A model generated the notes under the pieces. The model was not told the DNA's origin. It searched no databases and was given only the letters and a program-made list of their open reading frames with translations. Shown piece by piece: positions 10,346 through 52,832 of a stretch of 64,000 nucleotides of DNA; position 1 is the first letter of the stretch, and each line of letters opens with the position of its first letter. Where the stretch lies: contig CAZEEG010000008.1 of the NCBI GenBank assembly GCA_964511065.1, positions 16,091-80,090 on the forward strand. Direction: 5' to 3'. Source of the DNA: an uncultured Pirellulales bacterium. Its GTDB lineage: Bacteria > Planctomycetota > Planctomycetia > Pirellulales > S012-138. Made by a program: the position numbers and the translations under genes.

Positions 10346-10394
10346 TCGTTCCGCAGGTACTTGGCGCAACCGGTACCCCGCAGGCAATTGCCGC

Positions 10395-11579: not shown

Positions 11580-11688
11580 CAGCACGGCTCCTGGTACGCA
11601 AGAACAAGAAAGCGGCGTGGCCCCGTCACTCGACTTCACGGTGGTTTGAAGGCCGCGGCACAGCACGCAGCGTCCAATGCCGCGCTGC

Positions 11689-18293: not shown

Positions 18294-18776
18294 ATGAGGA
18301 AACCAGCAATGACGCATCCCAAGCCGCGGCGGCCACTGCCGGTGATCGGGTGGCGAGAATGGGTGGCGCTTCCGGATTTGGGCATCGACTGGATCAAGTC
18401 CAAGGTCGATAGCGGGGCCCGCACCAGTTGCCTGCACGCATTTGATATCGAGTACGGCCGCAAGAAAGGCGAACCGTACGTGCGATTCAAGGTTCATCCC
18501 GTCCAGCGGGATCCGCACAAGACGGTCATCGCCGAGGCCCCCCTGTTGGAGCGCCGGCACGTAAAAAGTTCCAGCGGCCACTTGTCGTTGCGGCCCGTAA
18601 TCGTTACGCCAGTGCAATTGCTGGGCGAGAACCTGGAGGTCGAACTGACCTTAGCCTCGCGCGATGCGATGGGCTTTCGCATGCTCTTGGGAAGGCAAGC
18701 GGTTCGTGGTAAGTTCTTCATCGATTCCGGGCACTCGTTCCTGGCTGGGCACCCTCCCACCGGACGGTCTGGGTAG
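18294..18776 (+). CDS. RimK-associated putative ATP-dependent zinc protease (retropepsin-like, DUF785/PF05618)
   Basis: 160 aa with the N-terminal motif PVIGWREWVALPDLGI typical of this family. It lies directly upstream of rimK. Confidence 0.7.
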   Translation: MRKPAMTHPKPRRPLPVIGWREWVALPDLGIDWIKSKVDSGARTSCLHAFDIEYGRKKGEPYVRFKVHPVQRDPHKTVIAEAPLLERRHVKSSSGHLSLRPVIVTPVQLLGENLEVELTLASRDAMGFRMLLGRQAVRGKFFIDSGHSFLAGHPPTGRSG

Positions 18777-18798: not shown

Positions 18799-19704
18799 AT
18801 GAAGATCGCCATCCTTTCCAGGAGGCCATCCCTCTATTCCACAAGACGTTTGAAAGAAGCAGGGCAGGCGCGCGGTCACGAGGTGCGAATCGTCGATTAC
18901 CTGCGCTGCTATATGGATATCACCTCGCACAAGCCACAGGTGCTGTACCAAGGTGAGCCACTGCTGGGATACGACGCCATCATTCCCCGGATCGGCGCAT
19001 CGAACACCTTCTATGGGACGGCGGTCGTCCGGCAGTTCGAAATGATGGGGGTCTACTCGGCCAACGAGTCGCAAGCCATTAGCCGCTCGCGCGACAAGCT
19101 CCGCAGCTTGCAACTGCTGTCGCGGAAGGGGATCGGCCTGCCCGTCACCGGTTTCGCCCACAGCACGAAAGACATCGAGGGGCTCATCAATATCGTCGGC
19201 GGCGCGCCGCTGGTCATCAAGCTGCTGGAGGGTACCCAGGGGATCGGCGTGATCCTGGCCGAAACCCGCAAGGCAGCCGAGGCGGTCATCGAGGCTTTCC
19301 GCGGCCTGCACGCCAACATCCTGGTGCAGGAATACTTGAAAGAAGCCCGCGGGGCCGATATCCGCTGTCTGGTGGTGGGTAACCGCGTGGTTGCCGCCAT
19401 GAAACGCCAGGCACCGCCCGGCGAGTTCCGCTCCAACCTGCACCGGGGTGGTACGGCCGTTAAGATCAAGCTCACGCCCGAGGAACGCAGTACGGCTACC
19501 CGGGCCGCCAAGGCCATGGGGTTGAACGTGGCCGGTGTGGACTTGATCCGCTCTAACCACGGGCCGGTGGTGGTCGAAGTAAACTCCTCGCCCGGCCTGG
19601 AGGGGATCGAAGCGGCCTCCGGCATCGACGTTGCCTCCGAGATCGTGGAATTCCTGGAAAAGAACGCCTCGCCGGGCAACACCAGGGACCGCGTGAAAGG
19701 ATAG
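18799..19704 (+). CDS. rimK: Ribosomal protein S6--L-glutamate ligase (ATP-grasp)
   Basis: 301 aa ATP-grasp protein ([18 protein letters not shown]...). It is similar to RimK along its whole length. Confidence 0.9.
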
Positions 19705-30138: not shown

Positions 30139-30655
30139 GATCTCGCGAGATGTTCGGGAGGGGAAAGCCGAAGCGGCGCGTCGGCACCGCGCCGGTGTGT
30201 ATTGGAAGCGCCCCTCATTCAAGCGTAACTCCAAACTGCGCGGCGGGCGAATGGGCCGCGGTCAGAGGCGCTGATGCCATGGATTTCCCAGAAGCAGCCG
30301 TTGGTGGTGCTCACAACCGGCGCCATCTCTACGACCTTCACATGCAACCAACCGGCAAATGACGTACCCTTCCCTGGTGCATGAGAAATTGCCCTGAACC
30401 GCCGATCACAGCCCCTTGTGCGTTTTTTTGGGGGGACGCGATGCCAATGGCTCAGGAACCAGGTGCCAAGACGACAAACCGGCCGATCAAAGCACCTGTT
30501 AGCGCGGTTGGCACAGGGCAGTTCGTTGATTCTTAGGTCCAATACCGGCACGATGAGCCGTAGGGACACTGACTGTCCAAGATTTTGTGTCCCCGGACGA
30601 ATCATCAGATGCCCAGGGGTCGTTTTCGTTTGCTTTCGCCGGGGGAGAGCCGTCC

Positions 30656-31276
30656 ATGCAATCGGTATTTCTGGTATGCGCGATCGCCGGCAGCGCCATT
30701 TTGGTGATTCAGTTTCTGATGACGCTCATCGGGTTCGATGGCGACGAATCAGGTTTGGACTCCATGGCCGGTGGCGAGGCCTCGCTGGGCGACACATCGC
30801 TGGGGGACGACGTGGCCAGCGGCCACGATGGCCTGGATCACGATCCCAACAGCCTGTTCAAGAAGATCACATTCCGTTCAGTTGTTGCCGCGACCGCGTT
30901 CTTCGGCATTGCCGGTATGGCGGCTTCGAGTGCTGGCTTGAGCCCGTTCCCCACGATGGCGATTGCCGTCGCTGCCGGCGGCGGGGCGTTGTACGCCGTG
31001 GGCTGGTTATTCCATTCGCTACGCCACTTGTCCGAGGAGGGCAATTTGCAAATTTCGCAGGCGGTGGGCCGGCCCGGCACCGTCTACATTCCCATCCCGG
31101 GCGAAAAATCCGGAGCGGGGAAAATCCAGCTTAACCTGCAAAACCGGATCGTAGAGTTGCGGGCCGTCACTTCCGAGAAAGACAGGCTTCCGACCGGCGC
31201 CAGCGTGGTCGTGGTGGAAGTTGTCAGTTCCAACACCGTCGCCGTTGAATTGGCTCGCGAGGCAGCCAAGACCTAG
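30656..31276 (+). CDS. NfeD-like membrane protein (short form; TM segments plus C-terminal OB-fold)
   Basis: ORF 30587..31276. The likely start is MQSVFLVCAIAG at 30656. It has hydrophobic helices, then a beta-rich OB tail (GTVYIPIPGEKSGAGKIQL...VVVVEVV). It lies upstream of a flotillin gene, the canonical pairing. Confidence 0.65.
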   Translation: MQSVFLVCAIAGSAILVIQFLMTLIGFDGDESGLDSMAGGEASLGDTSLGDDVASGHDGLDHDPNSLFKKITFRSVVAATAFFGIAGMAASSAGLSPFPTMAIAVAAGGGALYAVGWLFHSLRHLSEEGNLQISQAVGRPGTVYIPIPGEKSGAGKIQLNLQNRIVELRAVTSEKDRLPTGASVVVVEVVSSNTVAVELAREAAKT

Positions 31277-31531: not shown

Positions 31532-33172
31532 ATGGCAGCCTCAATCCTCTTGGCGCAAGTGGAACCTTGGATGGCATGGACCGTTGGCGGGCTCGTGCTT
31601 GGGTTCATCGTCGTAGCCGGCTTTGCGATGCTCATTGCTAACTGCGTTAAGCGCTGCCCCAGCAATCGCGTGCTGGTTATTTACGGAAAGACATTCACCC
31701 GGGGAAACGTCGCCAAGACCGTTCACGGCGGGGCGGCATTCGTGGTGCCGCTGATCCAGGGTTACGAGTACCTCAGCCTGGAACCGCTCCAGATCGAGAT
31801 TCCGCTCCGCGGCGCGCTCTCGTCCGAAAATATCCGCGTTAACGTGCCCAGCGTGTTCACGGTCGCCGTGGGCGCTGAGCCGGAAGTCATGGCCAACGCC
31901 GCGATCCGTCTGCTGGGCCTGGGCGTGAACGATGTCCGCAAGTTGGCCGAGGAAATCATTTTCGGCCAGTTACGGCAAGTGATCGCTTCGATGGGGATCG
32001 AGGAAATCAACCGCGATCGCGACACCTTCCTGGAACACATCCAGCAGTCACTTGAGCCCGAACTGAACAAGGTCGGCCTGGTGCTGATCAACGTGAACAT
32101 TACGGACATCACCGACGAGTCGGGCTATATCGACGCCATCGGCCAGAAGGCCGCGTCGCACGCCATCCAGAAGGCGCGTGCCGACGTGGCCGAGAACGAG
32201 CAGATGGGCGAAACCAAGGTCGCCGCCGCCGAGCGCGACAAGTCGATCCAAGTGGCTCTCGCCTACAAAGAGCAGGCAATTGGCACCCGATCAGCCGAGA
32301 AGGAGCAGGCGGTGCAAATCGCCCAGCTTCAAAGGGACCAGACCATCGGCGAGCAGAAGGCCGCTTTCGAGCGTGAAGCGGAAGTGAAAGCTGAGGAACG
32401 CGACAAGCGTATCCGCGTGGCCGCGGCCGATGCCGAAGCCATCACCGGCGAAAACGAAGCCCAGGCCCGCATCGCGGCCTCGCAAGCCGAACTGGCCGTC
32501 AAACGGGCGGAAGCATATGAGTTGGGCGAAGGCCGGAAGCGCGAGGCGGAAGCCGCCGTGCTGGAGACGCAGAACCGCGCCCTGGCCAAGACCGCGTTGG
32601 CTCAAGCCGAGCGGATCGAAGCCGAGAAGCGGGCCGAACTGGAGGCCCCCGCCAAGGCCGAGAAAGCACGCATCATCGTCGCCGCCGAAGCCGAGGCGGA
32701 GCGCAAACGGATCGACGCCCAGGCCGAAGCCGACGCCATCTTCGCCAAGCTTGAAGCGGAAGCACGCGGCCAATACGAAATCCTCGCCAAGAAGGGTGAA
32801 GGGTTGCGGGCCATTGTCCAGTCGTGCGGCAGCGCCAAGGAAGCGTTCCAACTGTTGTTGCTGGAGCACCTGGATACGCTCGCGGAAACCTCGGCCAAGG
32901 CCATCTCCAACATCAAGTTCGACAAGGTGGTGGTTTGGGAGAACGGCACCGCCAACGGCCACAACAGCACCACCGGATTCCTCAACAACATGGCCCGTAC
33001 CTTGCCCCCCATGATGCAAGTCATGAAGGACATCGGCGGTGTGGAGTTCCCCGAATCACTGATCAAGTTCAGCGAAGAAGAGGAACCCGTCGCCTCGGCC
33101 GGCCACCGGGCAGCCCCGGAAGTGGTCCCCAACGGCGGCAGCACCGTTGAAAGCAACACCGTCGAGAATTGA
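31532..33172 (+). CDS. Flotillin / SPFH (band 7) family protein with long E/A-rich coiled-coil (YqiK/FloT-like)
   Basis: N-terminal TM, then an SPFH domain (VLVIYGKTF...GGAAFVVPLIQGYEYLSLEPLQIEI). A long EA-repeat coiled-coil follows (AEAEAERKRIDAQAEADAIFAKLEAEA). Confidence 0.85.
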   Translation: MAASILLAQVEPWMAWTVGGLVLGFIVVAGFAMLIANCVKRCPSNRVLVIYGKTFTRGNVAKTVHGGAAFVVPLIQGYEYLSLEPLQIEIPLRGALSSENIRVNVPSVFTVAVGAEPEVMANAAIRLLGLGVNDVRKLAEEIIFGQLRQVIASMGIEEINRDRDTFLEHIQQSLEPELNKVGLVLINVNITDITDESGYIDAIGQKAASHAIQKARADVAENEQMGETKVAAAERDKSIQVALAYKEQAIGTRSAEKEQAVQIAQLQRDQTIGEQKAAFEREAEVKAEERDKRIRVAAADAEAITGENEAQARIAASQAELAVKRAEAYELGEGRKREAEAAVLETQNRALAKTALAQAERIEAEKRAELEAPAKAEKARIIVAAEAEAERKRIDAQAEADAIFAKLEAEARGQYEILAKKGEGLRAIVQSCGSAKEAFQLLLLEHLDTLAETSAKAISNIKFDKVVVWENGTANGHNSTTGFLNNMARTLPPMMQVMKDIGGVEFPESLIKFSEEEEPVASAGHRAAPEVVPNGGSTVESNTVEN

Positions 33173-33493
33173 GGGGGTGCCACGCCAAGGGGGAATCGCC
33201 TGGGGTGAGCCGCGTAGACCAGGCGGTTTGGGGGGGCCGTGCCCACCTGCGTTGCCTTTATTAGTCCGGCCATTCCCGGCACGCGGATTGCAAACCATGG
33301 TGACTGCTTGCCATGATGGCGGGCGTGGCCCCCACTGTCTGCCGCAGTGCTGTCAGTCGTGGAGCGGGCGGCGGAATGGATGCCGGCGCGTTGATGGCAG
33401 CCACCAAGAGGGGGTAATCAGCTTCTTGCCGACGCATTTCGCCCACGATAGACTGACAGTCAGTTGATTCGCTACTCGATTGAGGACGAGAGT

Positions 33494-33658
33494 ATGACCA
33501 CCCAACTGGCCCAGGACCAGCATTACGCGGCGCCCTCGCTGCCAGAATCCCCCTCGACTCCAACCCGCGAAGATGCCATTCGCAGCATCTTGGCCGACAG
33601 CCAGCGCGCCCCTCGCACCTTCTTGAACGAGGTGGTTGTCCCCTACGGTGGCGAATAG
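33494..33658 (+). CDS. pup: Prokaryotic ubiquitin-like protein (Pup)-like small protein, 54 aa, C-terminal GGE
   Basis: MTTQLAQDQHYAAPSLPESPSTPTREDAIRSILADSQRAPRTFLNEVVVPYGGE is predicted disordered and ends in F-L-x-E-V-V-x-x-Y-GGE (compare M. tuberculosis Pup ...FVRAYVQKGGQ). It lies immediately upstream of a PafA/Dop homologue and overlaps it. Confidence 0.6.
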   Translation: MTTQLAQDQHYAAPSLPESPSTPTREDAIRSILADSQRAPRTFLNEVVVPYGGE

Positions 33659-35366
33659 CGTACACCCGCTTCGGCGGTTAGCAGGTCTCGAAACCGAATA
33701 TGCGATCCGCATTCCGTCATCCGCGGCTTCGCCCCGCTCGCATTACGAACTGTACGAGTGCCTGATCCCGGCACTCCGGATGCGAATCCCGCTAGCCGAC
33801 GCGGCCCTGGACAAGATGGGCCACTTCCTGGCCAACGGCGGGGCCGTGTGGTTCGAAATGGTCCGCCTGACCGGCGAATTTGGGCTGATCGAAGGTTCCA
33901 CGCCCGAGTGCCGCGGCCCCCGCCAACTGCTCACCTACCAGCGGGCGCAGGATCGACTGTTCGCCGCATCGGCGGCCGATGCCAAGCCCCGCCCTTTTGC
34001 GCTGCTCAAGAATTGCCGGGATAGCGTCGGCAATTATTACGGGGCGCAGGAAAACTACGAGTTCCCCATCGCCTCGGGCGTGCGGTTGGCCATCTGGCGG
34101 GTGGGGCTGGTACTGCTGGCCCCCTTGATCCCGTTGACCTGGATCGGCCTGCTGGCCCGGGTGCTGCTGTATATCGTCATCCTGCTGATTTACATTGTCG
34201 TCAGCCATCTCGCGTTCTTGCTGCTGCTGCCGTTCATGCGCGACAGGATTCCGCTCCGGCGGTGGCTGTTCGACGGCCTGTTGACCGCGCAGGGCACACC
34301 CATCGAAAACGGGATCGAAAGCGCGCTCAACATGCTGGCTCTGCTGGTCTGCTTCCCGTTGGCCAGCAGCATGTACCTGCTGCTGCGTTTCACGGCGTTT
34401 GTCGGAGTGCGCAAGCAACTGACCGCCTTTCTCGTCTCGCGGTCGATCTTTGCCGGGGCCGGCACGCTCGACGATAACGGCGAGTTCCACGTGGCCGAAA
34501 AAGCGCACGGGCTGAACTGCCTGACCGGCCTGGGCGGCTTCATCGACGATCGGCCCGTCTATACCTTCGGGCATTTCCTCAAGGCGGCCTTGAGCGAAGC
34601 CTGGAATCTGCATCGTCGTTACGTGCGTTTGTTTCGCCGGAGGCAGCGTCTGCAGATCGCCCTGGGCGACTCAAACATGGCGCAGACGGCCGAGTTCCTT
34701 CGCATCGGCACTACGATGCTCGTGTTGGACATGCTGGAGGACGGCGCCCTGGCCGATGCGCCACGGTTGCGCCGCCCGCTGGCCGCCCTAAAGACATTTG
34801 CGGCCGATCCGGGCTTGCGGGAGCACGTCGAGATGCTTGATGGAACCCGCCGCACGGCCCTGGAAATTCAGCAATGGTACCTCGATGCCGCCAAAGCGTG
34901 GCTGGCCAGGCGACCATGGCACGAGGAGGCCAGCGAGATCGTCGAGCTTTGGGAACAAACGCTCGAAATGCTGGCCGGCAACCAGGAACCGTTGGTCGGC
35001 CGCATCGACTGGATCACCAAGCGATTCCTGATGGAGCAAGCCGGGAATGACGCATCGTTCGCAGTGAAGAAAAAGATCGACCTCAAGTACCACCAACTCG
35101 GCCCGGACGGATACTACGCCCAGCTCGAGGCCTGCGGTGCCACTCCGGTCCTGGTCCCCGCTGAAGAAATCGACCGCGCCGCCCGCACGCCGCCGCCAGG
35201 ATCACCTGCCTCCGCAAGGGGCCGTTTCATCCGGGAGTTTGCGGGCGAAGGCCTCGCGGTGAACTGGGATTTTGTGCTGCTGCGCCGCCGCTTCCGCACC
35301 CAGATCATCGACCTGGACCACTACTTCCACCAGCAACCCCCGCAGGAAGAAGCGGCATCGAAGTAG
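33636..35366 (+). CDS. PafA/Dop-family Pup ligase/deamidase homologue (carboxylate-amine ligase fold) with an inserted three-helix transmembrane segment
   Basis: It matches M. tuberculosis PafA across the whole length: GLETEYAIR vs [27 protein letters not shown] vs [34 protein letters not shown] vs [44 protein letters not shown] vs [41 protein letters not shown] vs [20 protein letters not shown]...[17 protein letters not shown] vs LDLAYHDI...PPQTTRARLRGEFI. An ~110-aa hydrophobic insertion (residues ~148-256) sits between the ENYEF and FLVSRS motifs. It uses a non-ATG start (TTG 33636 or GTG 33648). Confidence 0.8.
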   Translation: [576 protein letters not shown]

Positions 35367-35598
35367 TCGGCTCGTGTGCCGCAAAAGGGAAGCGGCCAAA
35401 CACGCGGCAACGCTCAGCCTTCAGGACTGGCGCCGGACGCTCTTTGCCGTTCTTCCAGGCGCGCGGTACGCATCGTGCAAAGCTCGTCGACATCGGCATC
35501 GTTGAAGCTCGAGGCGATCACAACGGGGCTACTTCTTGTTGGAGCCAATGACCACGGAACTGGCCGAGTGGTCCATGTCGTACCCCGGTATGGCTGGC

Positions 35599-37590
35599 CT
35601 ACAGGCTACGCAGGAACGCCAGCAGGCGGCGCAGTTCCTCGTCGCTCAGCGGCTCCTCAAGCTGATGGCGGAATTTGATCAGCACATCTTCCAGTGATTT
35701 GGCTCGCCCGTCGTGAAACAGCGGCCCCCTTTGGCTCACCCCGCGCAGGGAAGGCGGGTTGTAAAGGCGATTGCCGAGCTTGTCGGCCAGCCCCACATCG
35801 TATGCCCCCTCGGATGTGTAATGCGGCGGCTGGTGACAGTTGACGCAGCCCCGCGCTTCGAAAATCTGCCTGCCAGCCGCCACGGCGGTTTCGTTCACTT
35901 CGTCGCGGGCGACCGATAGCGACGGCGGCGGTTCAATCGTTTTGAGATACGCGACCAACGCGGCAATGTCGTCATCGGGCAGCGGTTGCCCTTGCATGGT
36001 GCTTTGCACGGAGACGCGTACTTGGGCAGCGAGGTCGGTTTGCAGTCCGTTCCAGGCCCAGGGACCGGTTTGGCCGACGGCCCCCAGCGGCAAGATGCGC
36101 TTGGCGTCGCCAAAGGACTGGTCGCTCAGATTGTCGGTCAGGTGACCGGTGGTATGCCCATCGGTGTGGCAACTGTGGCAACTGAACCAGCCATCGAGGG
36201 CCAGCCGTGCGTCGTAAAACAAGCGTTCGCCCCGCTCCACTTCACTGGGCTGCGGCCGGCGTCCCGGCACCAGCACCCGCTCGACCTTGCCCTGGGCAAG
36301 ATCAATCACGCTCAACGTATCGTCAAACGTATTGGCGACGACAGCCGAGGTGCCGTCGGCGGTGACGGCCGTGGCGGATGGCCGCTGGCCCACGTGGACG
36401 CGGCGCAAGGTGAAATCCGACTCGAAGCCGATGCCGACTTCGTTCACGCCGGCCAAAGCCACGATAGCGCGGCCATCGGTCGTAACGGCAACTTCGGCCG
36501 GGTCGCCGCCGGCCGACGTGTTATCGCCCGTTAAGTGCGAATGGCTGCCGGCCAGGATCGTCTTTTCGGGATCGAGGATGCTCGACAGCGGAATCCAGCG
36601 GAGCACGTTTGTCATCAGCACGCCCCAATGAACGTCGTTGTGACTGGTTTCCGCCAGGTCGTTCAGAATCTGGTGGGAGATCAGCACCCGGTTGCCATCG
36701 GCGGTCAGCGCCATGCCTCGGATGTTATGCGCGGGCAATTGCCGTACGGTTTCCAGCGTGGCGCGTGCCGTGTCGAAGATGCCCAGGCTGCCGCCGAAGG
36801 CATCGGCCACAATCATCCGGCGGCCGTCTTCGACCAGCAGGAGCCTCCGCGGCGCATAGGGCAGGTCGATCACCTTGGTGAGTCGGAGTGGCTGCGTCTC
36901 GCACCCTGGCTGTACGTCGAGAACGGACAACCGGCGAGACCAGAGCGATGCCACGTAGGCCGTGCCGCGTGCCGGATCAACTGCCAGACCTACCGGCGTG
37001 TGCGGCACCTTCAGCCTTTGGGCAACGCGAAAGCCCGACTGCGTGCGCTCGATGAGCAAAACGGTATGCGCGGCCTCGTCGGCAGCCAGCAGCCAGCGGT
37101 CGCCGTCCCAGGCCACTAACTGGCTCAAGCGGCGTCCCACGGTCGATTCGTGATAAACGTGGCCGGACGTTCGATCGACTTCCATGATTGAACCAGCGGC
37201 CGCATGGGCCACAACGATGCGGCGATCGCCATCAACCAGAACAATGGATATCGGATCGCGGCGCACGGCGGGTAGCGCATCGTCGGCGTCGCCTTTTGCC
37301 CCCGGTTGAACCGCGCCTGGGCCGACACGCGGAATCGCCTGATTCGCCGCGGCGGCGCCACCATACTCGTAATCTTCGGCCGCCGCCGTACCGACCCCCA
37401 GTGCCATGACCAGGGCGGTCACCACCCACGACAGCGGCCCATACCAGGCCGCAAGGCGCCGCCCCTTTGTCGTCCGATATTCGAAGGCGCCGCGGGTTTG
37501 CCGGCGGCACACGTGGGGATCGGGCAACGCAGCGTGCAGTGACGCGGATTGCGGCTGACACTTCCGAGGGGCAATTCGTCCGCGAGGCAT
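35599..37590 (-). CDS. Di-heme cytochrome c peroxidase/MauG-like domain fused to an N-terminal beta-propeller. Secreted or anchored.
   Basis: ORF to 37644. It has an N-terminal hydrophobic anchor, YVTN-like beta-propeller repeats, then two CxxCH motifs (CHSCH, CVNCH) about 110 aa apart. The C-terminus reads GPLFHDGRAKSLEDV, typical of the CCP family. Confidence 0.7.
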   Translation of the reverse strand: MPRGRIAPRKCQPQSASLHAALPDPHVCRRQTRGAFEYRTTKGRRLAAWYGPLSWVVTALVMALGVGTAAAEDYEYGGAAAANQAIPRVGPGAVQPGAKGDADDALPAVRRDPISIVLVDGDRRIVVAHAAAGSIMEVDRTSGHVYHESTVGRRLSQLVAWDGDRWLLAADEAAHTVLLIERTQSGFRVAQRLKVPHTPVGLAVDPARGTAYVASLWSRRLSVLDVQPGCETQPLRLTKVIDLPYAPRRLLLVEDGRRMIVADAFGGSLGIFDTARATLETVRQLPAHNIRGMALTADGNRVLISHQILNDLAETSHNDVHWGVLMTNVLRWIPLSSILDPEKTILAGSHSHLTGDNTSAGGDPAEVAVTTDGRAIVALAGVNEVGIGFESDFTLRRVHVGQRPSATAVTADGTSAVVANTFDDTLSVIDLAQGKVERVLVPGRRPQPSEVERGERLFYDARLALDGWFSCHSCHTDGHTTGHLTDNLSDQSFGDAKRILPLGAVGQTGPWAWNGLQTDLAAQVRVSVQSTMQGQPLPDDDIAALVAYLKTIEPPPSLSVARDEVNETAVAAGRQIFEARGCVNCHQPPHYTSEGAYDVGLADKLGNRLYNPPSLRGVSQRGPLFHDGRAKSLEDVLIKFRHQLEEPLSDEELRRLLAFLRSL

Positions 37591-38292
37591 GGTCGATTCC
37601 TCAGCGCGGCAGGTGGGCAACGCGGGCGGGGATTCATCCATCAATCTTGATGGCTACTACGACCAGAATAGAGAACCGGCCCCAGGCGGTCAATTTGAAC
37701 TGCCCCGCCGCCGATCGCGGCAAGCAAGAATGCTTTGCGAAGCCGGCTATTTCCATCCATGATGCAGCTTGATCCGCCCCCTCAATGAGCTGCCCAGGTA
37801 TCAATCATCTATCAATCATCGCTGGGACTGGCCGCGACGATCAGCTTGCCGGTTCGGCCGCAGCGTTCGTTTGTCGGCCGCAGCGCATCTCTGACACGCC
37901 CCATTTCTGACATGCGCCTTAGAAGGTCGCCATCATGAGCACGATCCGGCCGCTTCACGATTCTTCCGAGATCATACACTGAGGCGCCCATCCCTTTTGT
38001 CTTCAGCCAGGCGGCGAGCGCCCCCTGGGGACCATTGCCAACGAACCTCATGTCGCGATTAGCCGGCGTGGTTTCTTGCAACAGGTGGGCACCTGCGCCT
38101 CAGCGGTACTGGCGCTGTTGGCTGATTCCAAACTTTCTGCTGCGGAACCAGAACGGCCCCCGGCCTACGCTTTGCTGCGCTGCGAACTGATGAAACGGTA
38201 ATCGCCAGTCCGCCGTGCCGGGGTGTGGACGTTAGCCGCTGCGAGCCGGATGCCGCACGTGCCTAGCCGACGGCGAACGTTGACGCCCGTGG

Positions 38293-39387
38293 TTATCGCA
38301 GGTCGCGCATGAAGCGAAGGAACTGTGCATCCAAGTGCCGCAGGTTGTTGCCAAAGATCGCTGTAAAATCGGCCAGTCGGTCCTGCGACGGGTACGACTG
38401 GAAATCAGGCCGGGCGGCGACCTTGGCCAGGTATCGCGCGTACTCACGCGGCCGCGTCTCCGAGAGGAAGAACGTCAACGCCCAGGCTTCCGCGTAGGCA
38501 TTTTGCACAGATTGGCGAAAGGGCTGATCGCCTGCAATCAACTCCACCAGGGCATCTTCGCCACGGCCACGTTGCATGTATTGGCGGAAATCGGCCAACC
38601 GCTGCTGATTGATCCGTTCCGATTGCGGCCCGCCAGCGCGGCCGGTCCACACGCCGCGAGACTCAAACAGCATGCCGAGTCCCTCGGCCACCCAGCGAGG
38701 TGTGACACCGAAGCGATTGTGGATGCCGGTATTGAACGCCGTTTGATGAGTGGCTTCGTGGATGATGGTTTCGGCGTTTACGTGCCAGTTGGCGTCCTGG
38801 CCTCCCGCGGCATCGTACAGCAGCACCCGATTGGTCGCTGGCATGTAGAAGCCCAGCGTCGAGGTTGGCGTGCTTGGCGCGTACCGTTGCAAATATCGCA
38901 GGTACTCTTCACGGCTGCCCAGCACCACGGCTACCAAGGGGAACTGCGGTTGTTTAAGCGCGAAGCCGCGCACGCTGAAGTAGCGCTGGAAGCCGCGGAA
39001 CAGTTCGTCGAACCGGCTGGCCCATACCCGGCCTTGTCCTCGCGGATGGACCACCAGGTAAAGCCCGGCGGCCGTCACCTCGTACTCGGGTCCAAACTCC
39101 CGCTCCAGCGATCGCCGCATGGACATCGCGGTATCGGGCTGGAACGTTCGGGTGGTGCGTTCTACCGACACTTCACGGGGATCGAACGTGAACAGAACGC
39201 CGTCGCCGCGCAGCAAAGCAGCGTAGTTATCGCTCCAGACGAGCGGGAGCCCTTCGACGATACCATCTCCTTTGCGCACCTTCACGACCGGCGATGCTGC
39301 CGTGGCGGCCGCGGTGCAGCAGGCGAAGGCCAAAGTGGCCACCAGAATCGCCGCTATAGGGCAATGGGGCCGCCGCACGTGCAACAT
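38293..39387 (-). CDS. DUF1570-like secreted protein with HExxH motif (putative metallopeptidase). Planctomycete-restricted family.
   Basis: ORF to 39441. The signal peptide is AILVATLAFACCTAAATAASP. It contains IIHEATHQTAF. Confidence 0.55.
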   Translation of the reverse strand: MLHVRRPHCPIAAILVATLAFACCTAAATAASPVVKVRKGDGIVEGLPLVWSDNYAALLRGDGVLFTFDPREVSVERTTRTFQPDTAMSMRRSLEREFGPEYEVTAAGLYLVVHPRGQGRVWASRFDELFRGFQRYFSVRGFALKQPQFPLVAVVLGSREEYLRYLQRYAPSTPTSTLGFYMPATNRVLLYDAAGGQDANWHVNAETIIHEATHQTAFNTGIHNRFGVTPRWVAEGLGMLFESRGVWTGRAGGPQSERINQQRLADFRQYMQRGRGEDALVELIAGDQPFRQSVQNAYAEAWALTFFLSETRPREYARYLAKVAARPDFQSYPSQDRLADFTAIFGNNLRHLDAQFLRFMRDLR

Positions 39388-39702
39388 GCCCTGGTCTCCT
39401 GCCGGTGTTAGGTTCGGTGGCGGCAGGCGCGCGGTCTGCATCAGGGTACGCCGCTTTGCCAGCTAGGGAACGCGGCGCCGACCGTGAGCCCACTTTCCTT
39501 CAACCCTAGCATGGAATCGGCAGCAGCGCCGGAGGCGAGGGTACAACTTCCTCGGGCAGCCCCTCAAAGTCAATGAGGCACCCTTGGCCAGCCGCCAAGG
39601 GTGCCTCGCGTGGTTTCCCACGTATGGATATCTGTCTTGTTACCAGTTGCCAACGCACACTTCCCAGCAGCGGGAAGCACACTGGCCAAGCGTACTGGTT
39701 GC

Positions 39703-40971
39703 CTACTGGTAGCTGGTGCCAGGGAGGCTGGCGCTGGTCGTTCCGCCAGTGCCGCCGTAGGGCGAAGCGACCGTAGCACCGGCAGGACTGCCAAAGCGTC
39801 CCGTGCTGCCCGGCGCGTAGTCCGCGCTGCTGCCGGCGGTGAGGGTTGCCGCCGCTGCGGCATCGTAGGGCGCCTGGTATTGTCCCACGGTCATCGGCTT
39901 ATTGTCCGACATGTTACCAGGCTGGTAGCCGGTTTGGCCCAGCGTGCTGGCCTGTTGAGGACTACCGTAAGGACTCGCGGCGCCACTGTTGTATGCAGCA
40001 CCGCTGTTGTATGCCGGTGCGGTTGCTCCCGGGACCGTGGCTGCTCCTTGGGGTGGTGTGGATGGATAACTTCCGCCATAGCCGGGAGCCGTCGTCCCGG
40101 CGGGGCTGCCGTACGGCGACCCAACCGTGGCCCCCGCACCCGATTGATCCCAACCGGTGTTGCCGGCGGGCGGAACCATGCTATTGCGGGCATCGGCAGT
40201 GCTGTAGCCACCAGCGTTCGGCGTGGTGCCATAGGCAGGCACGGTTGCACCGGCCGGGTTATAGGCCGTGTTGCCGTACGCGGTCGCATCATATCCGGCG
40301 GTGCCGTATCCGCTTGTGTCATAACCGCTGGCACCCTGATTGCCGGCCGCATATTCCTGACCATAGCGAGGCTGGAAGCTGGCCGGCGAGGCCGTCGCAC
40401 CAGCGCCGTAGGCGGTGGGGTTGTATGCCGTTGCGGCCGTGCCATACGGATCGCTGGTCATCCCGTAAGCGGCACCCGTCGTGTCGTAACCGGCAGGTGC
40501 GGTGGTGCCAGCGCCGTAGGCGGTGTTCCCTGCGCCGTACGGGGTATTCCCGTATCCGCTCGCGGTTGCGTTGTATCCGCCGGCGCCGGTCGAGGCGTAA
40601 TCGGCTCCGCCGCTGTAGTTGCCGGCGCCGGTCGCCGTGCTGTTGTACCCGTTATACGGCGGTGTGGTGTCGGTCGCGGCGTAGCCGGGCTTGCCCCACG
40701 CATCGGCTCCGGCGCTAGCCGTTTGATTTGTGGAGGCCGACGACCCGCTATCGGTGGACGTGCCAGCCAAGGTGGTCGGCTTGGTCTTGGACGATGGCAA
40801 CTCAACCTTGGAGTCGGCGTAGGTGCTCTTGGGAGCGGCGGCCACGGCCGGTTCGGAAGATTTCTTCTTGCCCCAGGGCCACGACTTCGCCAACCCGTCG
40901 CCACCACGACAACCCGTCATGATGACAATACTCAGACCGACAACGGTCAATCGCGCGATCGGGATTCGCAT
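39703..40971 (-). CDS. Lipoprotein with extended low-complexity Tyr/Gly/Ala/Thr-rich repeats
   Basis: Signal peptide with lipobox (LSIVIMTGC). About 380 aa are dominated by A/G/T/Y/S/P/N with recurring AYG, GYD and TAYG units. The overlapping plus-strand long ORFs are antisense artefacts. Confidence 0.55.
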   Translation of the reverse strand: MRIPIARLTVVGLSIVIMTGCRGGDGLAKSWPWGKKKSSEPAVAAAPKSTYADSKVELPSSKTKPTTLAGTSTDSGSSASTNQTASAGADAWGKPGYAATDTTPPYNGYNSTATGAGNYSGGADYASTGAGGYNATASGYGNTPYGAGNTAYGAGTTAPAGYDTTGAAYGMTSDPYGTAATAYNPTAYGAGATASPASFQPRYGQEYAAGNQGASGYDTSGYGTAGYDATAYGNTAYNPAGATVPAYGTTPNAGGYSTADARNSMVPPAGNTGWDQSGAGATVGSPYGSPAGTTAPGYGGSYPSTPPQGAATVPGATAPAYNSGAAYNSGAASPYGSPQQASTLGQTGYQPGNMSDNKPMTVGQYQAPYDAAAAATLTAGSSADYAPGSTGRFGSPAGATVASPYGGTGGTTSASLPGTSYQ

Positions 40972-41465
40972 GGGCTCAGCCTCGCTATTTGGTTCATGTC
41001 GCCGGTCGAGAAGTGACCGTCAACGTATCTTCCGTGACGTTTGACGAAGGGAAACCAACGCTATCGCTGCTTGCCAACCAAAACAAACCGCGACGCACCT
41101 TGGTTAGTTGTCGGCCGTCCAAGACCTATAGTTGATTCAATCCTGAAAATTCCGGTATTCGCGCCAGCCGTCAAAATCGGAACGCGGTCGGGGCGGGACT
41201 ATAGGACTGGCCGAACCGGGCGTCAACGTCAAATCCCAGTCAATCGGGCGGTTAAGCCGCGGCCGTACGCCGATGAATTGCCCGAACTCCTACCGGCGCA
41301 GCGGTCGATGGTATCGCTGACATCACAACTGCCAGCACCAGCGCAATGACCGATGGTGGGTGGTTGCGGCGCACCGTGGCTGGGGGGACCTGAAACCTGG
41401 CAGCAGCGGCCGTTCGTTTCACCTCGCGAGAGTAGCGCCAGAAGTGGCTGTTGCGATCCAACCGT

Positions 41466-47103: not shown

Positions 47104-47256
47104 CCCCCGCAGGCCGTCCGGGGGGCACCGTACCTGCCGCCTGTGGAGCAAAGTCGGCGCCCCCGTGCAGTCTTGCAAGCAGCATTTAGAAACATCGAAT
47201 TTCCCGTCTTGGGGCAAAGTCGCGTTGTTGCCAACTTTCACCAACCGGAACAACAC

Positions 47257-48165
47257 ATGACCCGTGGCGAAGTGATCCTTGATTCGTACCGGCTGGCCAA
47301 ATATGCCGTGTCGGTACCCTGCCACATCTGCGGCGAACCTAACACGGTAGACGCGGAATTGTGCCGCGTCTGCTTCGCCCCCATGGCACTGGCCCACCAA
47401 ATCCGCAGCACCAAAGTGGCACCGACGATGATCGCCACGATCGGCTCCAGCGGCGTGGGCAAGACGGTCTACTTGGGCATGTTGATGGACATGATCAGCC
47501 GCCGCACCGACGGCACTCAACTGCTTGCCCGCGGGGCGTTCTCCGTCAATCTGCAACAGAAGACGATCCACGCGCTCCAGCAAGGCAGGTTTCCGGAAAA
47601 AACACCGAACGAACCGGATCGCTGGAACTGGGTTCACTGCCAGTTCAAAAGCGAAGCCTGCCCTAAGCCGGTCGAATTCATCATGCCCGACCTGGCAGGC
47701 GAAGCCCTCCTGGAGGAAGTCGATCATCCGGCCTCGTACCAGGTGGTGCGTTCCTTCCTGTCCAAGTGTGCCGGGGCGATGATCCTGATCGACGCCCTCC
47801 AATTGTTCAACGGCACGTTTGAACAGGACTTCTTCACCATGAAACTGCTCAGTTACCTGGTGGAGTTGGTCGACGATCCCAAGCGCGGCTGGAGGAACCG
47901 GCCGATCGCCGTGGTCTTCAGCAAGGCCGACCAGTGCGACGAAGTCTTCAGCGACCCCGAAGGCTACGCCCGGCAGTATGCCGCGGGCTTGTGGCGGCAT
48001 TGCCGCGAACGCTTCAAGCGGCACAAGTTCTTTGCCGCCAGCGTGGTCGGTCGCTGCATTACCCGGCACAACGTGTACGACGGCGAAATGCAGGTGCCCC
48101 TGCGGGTGGAACCTCGCGGGATTGAGCCTCCCTTTGAATGGATGATCGAACAGACCCGCCGCTGA
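47257..48165 (+). CDS. Ras-like small GTPase with N-terminal zinc-ribbon
   Basis: ORF 47143..48165. The likely ATG is at 47257 (MTRGEVILDSYR). Zinc ribbon is CHICGEPNTVDAELCRVC. G1 is GSSGVGKT, G3 is DLAGE, G4 is SKAD. Confidence 0.7.
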   Translation: MTRGEVILDSYRLAKYAVSVPCHICGEPNTVDAELCRVCFAPMALAHQIRSTKVAPTMIATIGSSGVGKTVYLGMLMDMISRRTDGTQLLARGAFSVNLQQKTIHALQQGRFPEKTPNEPDRWNWVHCQFKSEACPKPVEFIMPDLAGEALLEEVDHPASYQVVRSFLSKCAGAMILIDALQLFNGTFEQDFFTMKLLSYLVELVDDPKRGWRNRPIAVVFSKADQCDEVFSDPEGYARQYAAGLWRHCRERFKRHKFFAASVVGRCITRHNVYDGEMQVPLRVEPRGIEPPFEWMIEQTRR

Positions 48166-48198
48166 GGCCGGCCGGTTTCCGGCCGCCCCCTGGTCGTT

Positions 48199-49182
48199 GT
48201 GTCAGAACCTCCCCCCGAGTCGAGCAGTTTCCACCAGCCGAGGAGCGCAGCGTTGAACAACTCTGGATCGGCGACTCGTCAGCCAGGGCAAGACGTCGTG
48301 CCGGCTCAATCCTCGCCTGAATTCGGCGGCCGCGCCGCTCAACAGCCGGCCCGATGTGCCGAGGCCTCCTGCCAGCCAACCACAGAGGCCGACCAGGCTA
48401 TCTTTACGTCGATCGAGTCGGCGCGGGGCGGTGGTTATCAGCTTGCGGCCACCAGTCCCGGCGTCAGCCCTGCCGAGGCCCGGGAGCTTTCCGCCTGGGG
48501 GCCCTCGCACGATTCGCTTTGGGAGACCAGCGAAGCAGCGCGCAGTTACAACTTTCACCGTTTGCAAAGCGGGCGGCTGGCCATATCACGCAGTATTCAC
48601 GGCGAGGCCGAGTACAGCGGACGCGGAGGCCGGTCGGTCTATACGCACTTCCTCCTTTTCAGCCCTGCCGACTTCGCCCATTGGAGCGGCAATCCGTTCG
48701 CCATCTTGCGGGCCGCCAGCCAAACGGAAACACCGCTGCAACCCGTCCCGCAGCTTCTTTCCCGCTGGCGGTGCGAACCGCCCGATCCCTGCGACCGCCT
48801 GGGCCAGATATCCCACCTGGTGGAAGCAGCGGGAGGGCCGTTGAATGTGGCCTCGGCCCTGGATGCGGCCATACACCACGAAGCCGTAGCGTTTGTGGGG
48901 CCGCCCTTGGTGATCGAGGCGGCGATGGAAGTACTATTCCTGCTGCTGCCCGAATCGTCCAGGACGAATGTCTCGTTTGCGACAGGCTTGAAGTATTCGC
49001 CGCGCCGCCCGGCCCGCTGGATCGGCCTGCACGGCGATCTGCACCTGAGGCGGCGGCTTGCCCGCCAGTACCAATTCCAACTGGCCGATCTGACCCAAGG
49101 AACTGCCGACGTTCGGGCCTTGGAAGCCTTGGGCAGCCTGCTGGAAGAAGTGGCCCAAGACTTGGCATGCGAGAACACTTAG
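48199..49182 (+). CDS. Hypothetical protein, last gene of the GTPase cluster (possible GTPase partner)
   Basis: 327 aa, 34 nt downstream of the GTPase gene. No recognisable motif. Region-wide coding-like composition. Confidence 0.5.
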   Translation: MSEPPPESSSFHQPRSAALNNSGSATRQPGQDVVPAQSSPEFGGRAAQQPARCAEASCQPTTEADQAIFTSIESARGGGYQLAATSPGVSPAEARELSAWGPSHDSLWETSEAARSYNFHRLQSGRLAISRSIHGEAEYSGRGGRSVYTHFLLFSPADFAHWSGNPFAILRAASQTETPLQPVPQLLSRWRCEPPDPCDRLGQISHLVEAAGGPLNVASALDAAIHHEAVAFVGPPLVIEAAMEVLFLLLPESSRTNVSFATGLKYSPRRPARWIGLHGDLHLRRRLARQYQFQLADLTQGTADVRALEALGSLLEEVAQDLACENT

Positions 49183-50631: not shown

Positions 50632-51633
50632 ATGGCCCGCAGCCTCACCGAGCGTTCTGGCCCCGCAACATCCTCCCAGCCGGGACGGGTGGCCACCCCA
50701 CATTTGGGCAAGCCGGCTGGGTCAACGGTCCCACGAACCAGCGCGCAGGTGCCCTCCGCGGCGACCGCTACCGGCCAACAACGAATACCGCTGCGCCCGG
50801 CCTGGAATGCTACCGGAGCCTGGCAACACGCCGAAACGCTGCACGACGGCCCCCTGACGGTGGTTTTTCGGGCCCGGCCCATCGCAGGTGGCGAGGCCGC
50901 CTACGTGCTGAAGCGCCTGCAACCGCACTGGGTCGATGATCCCAGGGCGGTCGCCATGCTGAAGCGTGAAGCCATCGTCGGGCAGACCGTTCATCACCGC
51001 AACCTCGTCCCCGTGCTGGATGCTGGGCTGGACCATGAACCCTATTATGTCGTGACACCGCTGCTGGAAGGGCACACGCTTGAGACCTTGCTGGTCGGCC
51101 AACCCCGCCCCGCCCTAGCGCAAGCGCTGTGGATCGTTCGGCAAGTCGCCGACGCACTAAACGCCTTGGATGCGGCCGGGTGGATGCACGGCGACGTGAA
51201 ACCCTCGAACATCATCGTTTCGCCGCGCGGCCACGTTACGCTGATCGACCTGGGATTTGCCCGGCGGCGCGACGAGATGCGGGGAGAAACCGACCGGCCC
51301 TTGCCCGGTACGCCGCATTACATGGCCCCGGAAATGCTCATTTCGCGGCTACGACCCGACGCCCGCAGCGATCTCTACAGCCTGGGGACTGTGCTGTATC
51401 GTATGCTGGCTGGGCGATTGCCGTTTGACGGCGATGCGGCGACCGTACTCGCTCAGCAGTTACAAGGCCGGCCGCCCGCGCTCCGCGCGTTGGATCGCTC
51501 CATACCCGAGGAAATTTCGGCGCTGGTGCAACGGTTGCTGGCAAAGGACCCTCTGCGCCGTCCAAACTCGCCGGCCGAATTGGTCCGTCAACTGGTTGCG
51601 CTGGAGTTGGCGTATTTTGAGGATCGCGGGTAG
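50632..51633 (+). CDS. Hanks-type serine/threonine protein kinase
   Basis: Catalytic loop is HGDVKPSNIIV. It also has DLGFA (DFG-equivalent) and an APE motif (YMAPEM). Confidence 0.85.
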   Translation: MARSLTERSGPATSSQPGRVATPHLGKPAGSTVPRTSAQVPSAATATGQQRIPLRPAWNATGAWQHAETLHDGPLTVVFRARPIAGGEAAYVLKRLQPHWVDDPRAVAMLKREAIVGQTVHHRNLVPVLDAGLDHEPYYVVTPLLEGHTLETLLVGQPRPALAQALWIVRQVADALNALDAAGWMHGDVKPSNIIVSPRGHVTLIDLGFARRRDEMRGETDRPLPGTPHYMAPEMLISRLRPDARSDLYSLGTVLYRMLAGRLPFDGDAATVLAQQLQGRPPALRALDRSIPEEISALVQRLLAKDPLRRPNSPAELVRQLVALELAYFEDRG

Positions 51634-51689: not shown

Positions 51690-52832
51690 TTACCGCACCT
51701 TGTCGGCCACCCATTGCACCAGTTGGTTGGGTGTCATGGCGGCGACTTCTGCCCCGGCGTGGACCATTCGCGCGGCCAGGTTGCGGTCGTAATTGGGTTC
51801 TGCGCGGTCGTCCAAGGCGGCCAGTCCTAGTACATTCACGCCGGACTCGCACAAGCCCTTGGTGACGGAAAGCAAATGCGCCTCTGAGCCGCCTTCATAG
51901 AAATCGGTCACCAGAACCACGATGGTTTGCCGCGGGTTCTCGACCAGGCCGGCCGCGTATTGCATGGCCGAGGCGATATCGGTCCCCCCGCCCAGTTGCA
52001 CCTTCATCAGCGTTTCTACCGGATCGGTGCAGTCGGCAGTTACGTCCACCACAGCCGTATCAAACAGCACCAGATGCGCGCGGAGCGAGCCCATTCCCCA
52101 GAAAATGGCGGCCATGATCGCCGAATGCATCACGCTATCGAGCATGCTGCCGGACTGGTCGACCAGGATGATGATCTGCCAGCGGTCGGCTTGTCGGCGA
52201 ATTCGCGAGAAGAAATAGGGCGTTCTCAAATACAACCGCTTTTCCCGCGGGTTGTAGTGGACCAGGTTGCGGCGCAGTGTCGTCTTGGCGTCGAAATTCT
52301 TGGCTACCTTCATGGGGCTGCGGCGGCGGCGATCCACCGCACCAGTGAAGATCGACTGCACTTCCCGGGCCAGCTTTTCGATCAGTTCTTCCACCACCTT
52401 GCGGACCAGGGTTCGGGCCATCGCCAGCACCTCTTGATTCATCAGGTGCTTGGTTTGCAAAATCGCCTTCAGCAGCGTCTGGCTGGGCTCGGCCCGCTGC
52501 AACACCTCGGGATTAGTGACCATCTCGTCGAGTTGGTACCGCTCCAGGGCGTCGCGTTCCAACCGTTCGATCGTCGAGGTGGGAAACAACTCGTGAATCT
52601 GGTTGATCCAGTCGGGCACCGTAAGCTGCGAGGCTTGCAATCCAGCCGACCGGGCTGTTTGGTTCTTCTGGCTGCGGCGGATGTGGCGGCCAGCGCCATA
52701 TTCGCGGTCGTACAAAAAAGCGAGCGCCTGGTCCTGCTGGGCCGCCTCACCTTGCGGCGTGCAACCCAGCGCTTGTTCGGCGCCTTCGCCCAACACCAGC
52801 CGCCAACGCAACAGCCGCGCGCGATCACTCAT
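51690..52832 (-). CDS. von Willebrand factor A protein, CoxE-like (PF05762-type)
   Basis: N-terminal RWRLVLGEG motif typical of CoxE-type vWA proteins. The C-terminal vWA MIDAS is DQSGSM...T...D. It overlaps the upstream gene by 4 nt (ATGA). Confidence 0.75.
   Translation of the reverse strand: MSDRARLLRWRLVLGEGAEQALGCTPQGEAAQQDQALAFLYDREYGAGRHIRRSQKNQTARSAGLQASQLTVPDWINQIHELFPTSTIERLERDALERYQLDEMVTNPEVLQRAEPSQTLLKAILQTKHLMNQEVLAMARTLVRKVVEELIEKLAREVQSIFTGAVDRRRRSPMKVAKNFDAKTTLRRNLVHYNPREKRLYLRTPYFFSRIRRQADRWQIIILVDQSGSMLDSVMHSAIMAAIFWGMGSLRAHLVLFDTAVVDVTADCTDPVETLMKVQLGGGTDIASAMQYAAGLVENPRQTIVVLVTDFYEGGSEAHLLSVTKGLCESGVNVLGLAALDDRAEPNYDRNLAARMVHAGAEVAAMTPNQLVQWVADKVR

Follow-up and report, generated by a model that had tools for sequence, protein, structure and literature searches.

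To our knowledge, Actinobacteria are the only group in which pupylation is understood, and there it serves mostly to supply a proteasome. The closest described systems beyond that group are the pairs of a Pup and a Pup ligase with a transmembrane insertion that Iyer, Burroughs and Aravind predicted for Rhodopirellula and Plesiocystis in 2008; no proteasome genes were linked to them, and pupylation of membrane-associated proteins was the proposed activity (Biol Direct 3:45; PMC2588565). The same study described Pup as disordered except for two helices and, after them, an extended tail made up of the last 6-7 residues, and listed the motifs of the enzyme superfamily: GhExE for nucleotide and Mg on strand 1, [HQ]x[NH] on strand 4, [QH]x4D on strand 6, and arginines (PMC2588565). 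Hecht et al. (2020) reported that some Planctomycetes have only one PafA/Dop-like copy, with 29-31% identity to each of the two enzymes; they used it as an outgroup and placed it outside the PafA and Dop clades. They further found that the conformation of the alpha-loop separates ligase from hydrolase, a helical alpha-loop with a conserved Thr-Thr pair and an Arg being the mark of PafA (PMC7947786). The proteasome is described as mostly confined to Actinobacteria, in which pupylation also has roles that do not involve it (PMC8223512), and PafA itself can transfer Pup between substrates (PMC5358908). Here, we describe a pair of overlapping genes in a 64,000-nucleotide (nt) stretch of contig CAZEEG010000008.1 from an uncultured Pirellulales bacterium (hereafter, "the window"), which we read, with moderate confidence, as a Pup-like conjugation module in a Pirellulales-type planctomycete, made up of two genes, independent of a proteasome, and of the same kind as predicted in 2008.

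The first gene of the pair (33494..33658, + strand) runs from an ATG at 33494 to a TAG at 33656-58 and encodes a 54-residue Pup-like modifier peptide, MTTQLAQDQHYAAPSLPESPSTPTREDAIRSILADSQRAPRTFLNEVVVPYGGE, whose C-terminus in the translated window reads FLNEVVVPYGGE. An alternative TTG upstream, at 33464, would give a 64-residue product; the 54-residue protein has already been called, with identical sequence, in NCBI/ENA. The second gene (33648..35366, + strand) lies in a different frame and encodes, from a GTG start, a 572-residue enzyme of the Pup-ligase (PafA/Dop) family. The original prediction, which was made from these letters, had described a 54-residue open reading frame (ORF) ending in Gly-Gly-Glu ("GGE") that overlaps a 576-residue ORF, and both are present. 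The longer version of the enzyme begins at the first in-frame start, TTG 33636, from which we count its residues throughout. As judged from the sequence, GTG 33648 is the likelier start, because the same 11-nt overlap is found in related loci (33 of the 67 that could be analyzed) and because independent gene calls, on relatives and on an identical ENA contig, use it: In L001, L004, and L086, the ligase is called from a start that overlaps the end of the small ORF by 11 nt. The overlap (33648..33658, + strand) puts the GTG within the GGT-GGC codons for the Gly-Gly pair of the peptide, an arrangement that makes it almost certain that the two genes would be translationally coupled. A scan of 33100..35700 for promoters and terminators returned none above shuffled expectation.

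The small ORF turned out to be a nearly constant companion of the enzyme gene. A scan of one genome per species, covering 185,579 species, detected relatives of the enzyme in 227 genomes; the best 80 of these 227 carried labels of Planctomycetota lineages in 77 cases, of a "bacterium" only in two, and of an "Alcaligenaceae" metagenome-assembled genome (MAG), probably mis-binned, in one. Among 81 nonredundant related loci, 79 had a small + strand ORF ending in GGE just upstream of the enzyme gene, a frequency far above what chance would give, so that the GG[EQ]-ended ORF is indeed kept among related Planctomycetes; the end was GGE in all 79 and GGQ in none. The two exceptions were L051, a contig that begins within the ligase gene, and L085, a Fuerstiella MAG (see below). 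Across the 79 loci, the last 24 residues follow the motif [IV]xxD[SA]xxx[PA]xx[YF]LxE[TS]x[VT]P[HYF]GGE, with Gly-Gly-Glu in 79/79, D(-20) in 78/79, and P(-5), L(-11), and Y/F(-12) near-invariant; the N-terminal half is variable, and identity within a 36-sequence subset was 15-50%. In the window, the extended tail is VVPYGGE. A single-sequence AlphaFold prediction for this peptide left residues 1-24 unstructured (predicted local distance difference test, pLDDT, ~60), placed helices at 25-38 and 41-46, and had residues 47-54 form an extended tail, i.e., a predicted bihelical unit with an extended tail and disorder elsewhere. The ORF also falls within the functional definition of Pup, namely, 50-90 residues, a C-terminal G[EQ], and an adjoining ligase gene. 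As a separate observation, the locus labeled "uncultured Alcaligenaceae" (L083, CAYYUU010000058.1) holds a Pup-like/ligase pair at 39% identity with the tag end VPHGGE; either the contig comes from a planctomycete and was mis-binned, or the pair was, in a rare event, transferred beyond the phylum.

The family membership of the enzyme, as originally proposed, was borne out over its full length. The Pfam profile Pup_ligase (PF03136) matched in one stretch, residues 14-547 against profile positions 1-440 of 441 (E = 2.5e-82; 277.7 bits against a cut-off of 25), and all of the PafA-type motifs that had been quoted are there: ETEY (19-22), QENYEF (138-143), GDSNM (344-348), IDW (457-459), YH (485-486), and further ones at 265-276 and, beginning with PP, at 520-532. 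We evaluated conservation over the best 120 of 752 homologs, which come from independent assemblies and are nearly all 560-620 residues long; the nearest genome is an uncultured MAG (79% identity), the nearest named one is Anatilimnocola (44-47%), and homologs are named "PafA2 family protein" or "Depupylase" in public annotation. Invariant or near-invariant in this set were G17-x-E19-x-E21 (within GLETE, 17-21, the GhExE motif), Q138-E-N140-Y (the [HQ]x[NH] motif), Q340 and D345 (the [QH]x4D motif), R269, and R338; E74, E86, and T89-P-E91 were conserved as well. Searched against the PDB, the profile of the 120 homologs matched only Dop (234 bits, E = 2e-68) and PafA (174 bits, E = 3e-50). An AlphaFold model built on the 120-homolog alignment reached a pLDDT of 92.5 and a predicted template modeling score of 0.92, and its top 11 Foldseek matches were all Dop or PafA (E from 1e-26 to 1e-18), with GCS2-type ligases next. 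Template modeling (TM) scores, normalized to the target, were 0.80-0.85 for Dop at a root-mean-square deviation (rmsd) of ~3 Å (7oxy: 0.80, 3.0 Å) and 0.70-0.73 for PafA at 8-10 Å (4bjr: 0.73). In the model, the two-domain PafA/Dop fold is thus kept and complete, and it stays intact despite a large insertion that we describe below.

The surroundings of the pair offered no sign of a proteasome. A Pfam scan of 40 of the 46 nonoverlapping window ORFs of at least 150 residues found no proteasome subunit and no AAA+ unfoldase, and tblastn found no second PafA/Dop paralog in the window, all as the original prediction had it. Likewise, no 20S proteasome or Mpa/ARC gene was among the recurrent neighbors in the 81 loci. 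When ORFs of at least 100 residues within 6 kb of the ligase gene were clustered, no conserved third gene emerged: The largest cluster covered 9 of the 81 loci. Because no ORF family recurs in more than these nine neighborhoods, the pair is a self-contained two-gene module. Its host is recognizable as a Pirellulales-type planctomycete from the DUF1559, DUF1570, and PSCyt-type families in the window and from the labels of the homologs.

Two groups of observations, one concerning the enzyme and one the peptide, weigh against reading the pair as a conjugation module. In the enzyme, the position of the catalytic Asp is taken by Glu74, which aligns with that Asp in the PafA of C. glutamicum ("NGSRLYLD" versus "NGGavwfE") and is a Glu in 119 of the 120 homologs. 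The reference residue, on strand 2, is D64 in C. glutamicum PafA and, in A. cellulolyticus Dop, the Asp of LYVDHAHPE (residue 93-94 by alignment). A hairpin insertion of 6-7 residues follows Glu74, whose acidic character is kept. The alpha-loop (299-306) reads GGxLxDRP, in which the Arg is retained and both conserved Thr are replaced, and it is a loop in the AlphaFold model, as in Dop, a predicted conformation being weak evidence. Moreover, both the sequence comparison (234 versus 174 bits) and the model favor Dop over PafA.

Alternatively, the enzyme could be a Dop-type hydrolase, a depupylase or amidase that would strip membrane-associated substrates of the Pup-like peptide or of some other gamma-glutamyl amide. 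Dop scores above PafA in NCBIfam as well as in the PDB sequence searches and Foldseek, the S/A-T-P-E motif contains a Dop-like Pro90, and the alpha-loop contains a Dop-like G-L pair besides being modeled as a loop rather than a helix. We nevertheless consider this reading unlikely. The enzyme would be a lone eraser without a substrate, as planctomycete genomes are reported to have only one family member (PMC7947786) and the window holds no other, and deamidation is needless for a tag that always ends in GGE. The Dop-loop, an insertion of ~37-40 residues between strand 1 and the strand of the catalytic Asp, is absent: Residues 30-76 of the enzyme (47 residues) face residues 19-89 of Dop (71 residues), leaving Dop ~24 residues longer, whereas the N-terminal 140 residues align through the family profile to PafA 6-134 without a large gap. 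Both NCBIfam equivalog cut-offs were missed by about threefold, that for Dop (TIGR03688) with 178.7 bits against 492.3 and that for PafA (TIGR03686) with 161.3 bits against 551.3. Finally, since Hecht et al. place the planctomycete proteins outside both clades, the similarity scores give no direction. With both cut-offs missed, the Dop-loop absent, and Glu74 in place of the catalytic Asp, the enzyme is, by sequence, an ortholog of neither PafA nor Dop. The motif-for-motif alignment to PafA with which the enzyme was first presented therefore stands as far as the motifs go and falls short in that the better score is against Dop and the protein belongs to neither orthologous group.

For the peptide, the difficulty is that no search connected it to Pup. 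The window ORF had no match in Pfam and NCBIfam at E ≤ 1, none of 36 relatives matched Pup at E ≤ 10, a profile of the small ORF retrieved no Pup chain from the PDB, and hhalign against the Pup of M. tuberculosis (a query that we checked against 7px9) returned a probability of 0.2%. In addition, the Fuerstiella sp. MAG (L085, JBDNHJ010000167.1) has no GGE-ended small ORF within 21 kb of its ligase gene (10001..11665; 40% identity, of the type with a transmembrane insertion). It is the sole complete locus without the tag ORF, and its tag gene may lie elsewhere, have been lost, or be differently formed. The literature that we searched contained no experiment on any planctomycete-type pair. Both the missing profile similarity and the Fuerstiella locus would speak for a small ORF that arose by chance, encodes a leader peptide, or supplies a noncovalent regulatory subunit of the enzyme, with the enzyme acting on something else. 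This we regard as very improbable, given that the ORF persists in 79 of 81 loci at such low identity with an invariant GGE and a handful of near-invariant positions, that a variable N-terminal and a conserved C-terminal half are the exact pattern of Pup, and that a terminal Gly-Gly-Glu is what an enzyme that activates a gamma-carboxylate needs (PMC2588565). The peptide, while not detectably Pup by sequence, is accordingly best described as a putative Pup-type tag, an assignment drawn from its position, size, layout, and GGE end.

The enzyme is further set apart from Dop and PafA by a family-specific insertion of ~105 residues (142-246; 34059..34373, + strand) directly after core strand 4 (QENY), which neither of the two possesses. 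Its bounds come from alignments made with phmmer and hmmsearch against Dop (4b0r) and PafA (4b0t); in the phmmer alignment to Dop, the query jumps from residue 141 to 247 while Dop stays at residue 158. An artefact of frameshift, assembly, or gene calling, which would be the trivial explanation for such an extra segment, is refuted by the conservation data, and we assign it a negligible probability. The frame is uninterrupted, the homologs are of nearly uniform total length, and the 120 aligned homologs keep the insertion. The stretch from QENY to SRxxxAGAG measured 123-126 residues in the 34 of 120 homologs where both motifs matched the pattern, W154, P163, and P241 within the insertion are invariant, and the insertion was modeled at a pLDDT of 92-98 outside a polar loop. 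This loop modifies the earlier description of the insertion as ~110 almost entirely hydrophobic residues: The segment is real and of about that size, but ~30 polar residues split it into two hydrophobic blocks.

Hydropathy and charge over the 120 homologs define a charge-free block 1 (residues 151-199; 34086..34232, + strand), the polar loop (200-229; 34233..34322, + strand), with a family mean of 3.6 K/R and 4.5 D/E, and a charge-free block 2 (230-253; 34323..34394, + strand). After block 2 come the core helix 256-268 and a K/R-rich exit (254-263, net +2.7), which would be cytoplasmic. The AlphaFold model (DSSP assignment) has four helices in this region. The first, 148-161, carries conserved R150, W154, and R155 and is divided by the invariant P163 from an uninterrupted 37-residue helix, 164-200; a short helix follows in the polar loop (205-216; pLDDT of the loop 73-89), and block 2 lies in a single 32-residue helix, 222-253, which includes the invariant P241. 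Because the insertion is flanked on either side by parts of a single folded domain, the number of membrane crossings is even, and two (or four) fit; an odd number would place one half of the catalytic domain on each side of the membrane. The three transmembrane helices of the original prediction, which a naive count does yield, are hence topologically impossible as a count, and they correspond neither to the two charge-free blocks nor to the four modeled helices. Most likely, to judge from the hydropathy, the charge distribution, and the modeled secondary structure, the insertion would form a helical hairpin with two crossings plus interfacial helices. In such a hairpin, helix 148-161 would lie at the interface on the cytoplasmic side, block 1 would span the membrane outward, the polar loop would sit on the far (periplasmic) side, and block 2 would form the return span. 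We infer from the same features that the catalytic domain would reside on the cytoplasmic face of the inner membrane. A hydrophobic-moment analysis for interfacial helices of the insertion gave no discrimination.

The location of the insertion also bears on what the acceptor of the peptide may be. The insertion exits the fold right after an active-site strand, beside the catalytic cradle, which would suit an acceptor in the membrane itself: an amine-bearing lipid, such as phosphatidylethanolamine (PE) or an ornithine or lysine lipid, or another small amine. In this scheme, the GGE peptide would be placed on an amino-lipid head group, and not (only) on lysines, in a Pup-based analog of Atg8/LC3 lipidation (as in Atg8-PE) that would mark membrane regions. 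These planctomycetes are endomembrane-rich bacteria. The superfamily, which includes GCS2 and glutamine synthetase, joins gamma-glutamyl carboxylates to small amines (PMC2588565), and GCS2-type enzymes are the next structural neighbors of the model in Foldseek; there is no conserved partner or reader gene, and the alpha-loop and the region of the catalytic Asp are unlike those of both protein-directed enzymes. We regard lipid or small-amine acceptors as improbable, however, as the scheme is purely speculative, no lipid-binding site is identifiable in the sequence, and the closest characterized relatives all act on protein lysines. In a milder version, the enzyme would be bifunctional and ancestral, both writing and erasing a mark that a nonproteasomal machine reads.

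For the conjugation module that we favor, with protein lysines as acceptors, the chemistry of PafA and of carboxylate-amine ligases suggests the following sequence of steps. The enzyme would bind the helical C-terminal half of the peptide, use ATP to form a gamma-glutamyl phosphate on the terminal Glu, and then join the activated peptide to a target protein through the epsilon-amino group of a lysine. As the original prediction recognized, a single enzyme would suffice, no Dop-type deamidase being required because the tag is encoded as GGE. The insertion would hold the catalytic domain at the cytoplasmic face of the inner membrane, and targets would consequently be membrane or membrane-proximal proteins. 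The enzyme may also remove or transfer the tag and act as a reversible writer and eraser, given that it is the sole family member reported per genome, that it resembles Dop at least as much as PafA, and that PafA moves Pup. The fate of a tagged protein is the weakest step and a guess: With no proteasome in the window, the tag might be a regulatory or localization mark, or a handle for another AAA+ machine, e.g., FtsH.

Upstream of the tag gene lies an SPFH/Band_7 (flotillin-like) gene (31532..33172, + strand; Pfam E = 2e-28), and before it a 229-residue ORF (30587..31276, + strand) that is hydrophobic in its N-terminal half, resembles NfeD on visual inspection in its C-terminal part, and has no Pfam match. 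We considered a link between flotillin microdomains and pupylation and rejected it: By tblastn, SPFH and NfeD-looking genes were near the ligase gene in 0 of 85 other loci, and the relative with 79% identity has MnmE at the flotillin position. A role in anti-phage defense was dropped as well, as a PADLOC search with the ligase, tag, flotillin, and NfeD-like ORFs came back empty. Downstream of the ligase gene, we noted a beta-propeller/di-haem cytochrome c peroxidase gene (CCP_MauG; 35599..37644, - strand) and a DUF1570 gene (38293..39441, - strand); these were discarded as parts of the module since they are syntenic only in the closest relative (L004/L006, 74-80% identity).

Several further genes of the window were noted. 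A RimK-type ATP-grasp glutamate ligase gene (18799..19704, + strand; RimK E = 1e-66, plus Rimk_N) is directly preceded by a 160-residue ORF (18294..18776); RimK-type ligases are another class of enzyme that acts on protein C-terminal glutamates. A leucyl/phenylalanyl-tRNA protein transferase of the N-degron pathway (Aat; 5756..6463, - strand; E = 2e-65) is encoded near an HtrA-like trypsin-PDZ protease (8606..10345). Genes with DO-GTPase2 and GAP1-N2 domains stand side by side and are followed by a Ser/Thr protein kinase gene (47143..49182 and 50632..51633, + strand), a cluster that looks like a GTPase-centered conflict or signaling system. Next come, in tandem, VWA CoxE-like and DUF5682 genes (51690..55492, - strand; DUF5682 product of 887 residues, E = 3e-121). 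This pair is usually found with a MoxR-type AAA ATPase, and none was among the scanned window ORFs. Lastly, two long ORFs overlap on opposite strands (39601..41016, + strand, and 39703..40971, - strand); the minus-strand ORF has no Pfam match, and the third-position GC of the plus-strand ORF is low (0.57).

What a Pup-type tag does in a proteasome-free, Gram-negative-type bacterium has been a standing question since 2008, and it is a testable one: Cultured carriers (Rhodopirellula, Anatilimnocola) and genetic tools for Planctomycetes exist. With one enzyme, a ligation-ready tag, a membrane anchor, and no proteasome, the planctomycete version would represent the simplest natural form of the pathway. 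An enzyme that stands outside the split between PafA and Dop could reveal both the ancestral role of these enzymes and how a Pup-type mark is used without a proteasome. To the 2008 prediction, our analysis adds a few small, family-wide features: the exclusive GGE end, the Glu at the position of the catalytic Asp, the start codon within the Gly-Gly codons, the lack of a Dop-loop, the lack of a conserved neighbor, and an anchor that is likely a two-span hairpin.

Set against the individual components of known systems, the peptide compares with the Pup of M. tuberculosis (Rv2111c; PF05639) in its size class of 50-90 residues, its disordered N-terminal half, its two short helices and Gly-Gly-Glu/Gln tail, an aromatic-aliphatic pair ~11-12 residues from the end (EDFV...GGQ versus xxYL...GGE), and a gene adjoining that of the ligase. 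It differs from Pup in showing no significant profile similarity, in always ending in Glu and never in Gln, in a conserved Pro-His before GGE, and in having no conserved N-terminal region fit to serve as an Mpa-type recognition element. The enzyme shares with PafA (C. glutamicum; 4B0T/4BJR) the fold, the two-domain architecture, the GxExE, [HQ]x[NH], and [QH]x4D motifs, the Arg residues, and the absence of a Dop-loop, and by analogy it would be expected to activate the gamma-carboxylate of the C-terminal Glu with ATP. Unlike PafA, to which it is ~20% identical, it carries the 105-residue membrane insertion, the Glu with its 6-7-residue hairpin, and a modeled nonhelical alpha-loop that lost the Thr-Thr pair, and it has no proteasome/Mpa partner. 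With Dop (A. cellulolyticus; 4B0R, 5LRT, 7OXY), it has the best match in sequence and structure, the Pro in STPE, and the G-L pair and loop conformation of the alpha-loop. Yet it lacks the Dop-loop, possesses the membrane insertion, faces a tag encoded with Glu that needs no deamidation, and is the only paralog, so that it cannot be an eraser only. GCS2/YbdK-type ligases (1R8G, 1TT4) are built around the same glutamine-synthetase-like beta-sheet cradle and likewise activate a gamma-glutamyl carboxylate (PMC2588565), but they are remote (TM score 0.36-0.39, 8-10% identity), being small-molecule enzymes without the C-terminal domain of PafA/Dop or a tag.

The closest likeness remains that to the pairs of Rhodopirellula baltica and Plesiocystis pacifica, where a small gene with a G[EQ] end adjoins a single Pup-ligase homolog, the transmembrane insertion lies immediately C-terminal to core strand 4, and proteasome genes are not linked. 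With R. baltica, for which we draw on the published description, the pair also has the planctomycete host in common. The claim that the inserted segment distinguishes the enzyme from known PafA/Dop enzymes did not hold up in this light, as a Pup ligase with a transmembrane insertion, together with its Pup, was described in 2008 (PMC2588565). Two differences from that description can be named: Four transmembrane segments were counted there, whereas here hydropathy and the model favor two long spans and two shorter helices; and linkage to a membrane-protein gene was noted there, whereas here no neighbor is conserved over the 81 loci and the upstream SPFH gene is not near the ligase in other loci. 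Overall, the pair is another member of the kind predicted in 2008, built on the principle already set out for the pairs of R. baltica and P. pacifica and adding no new one.

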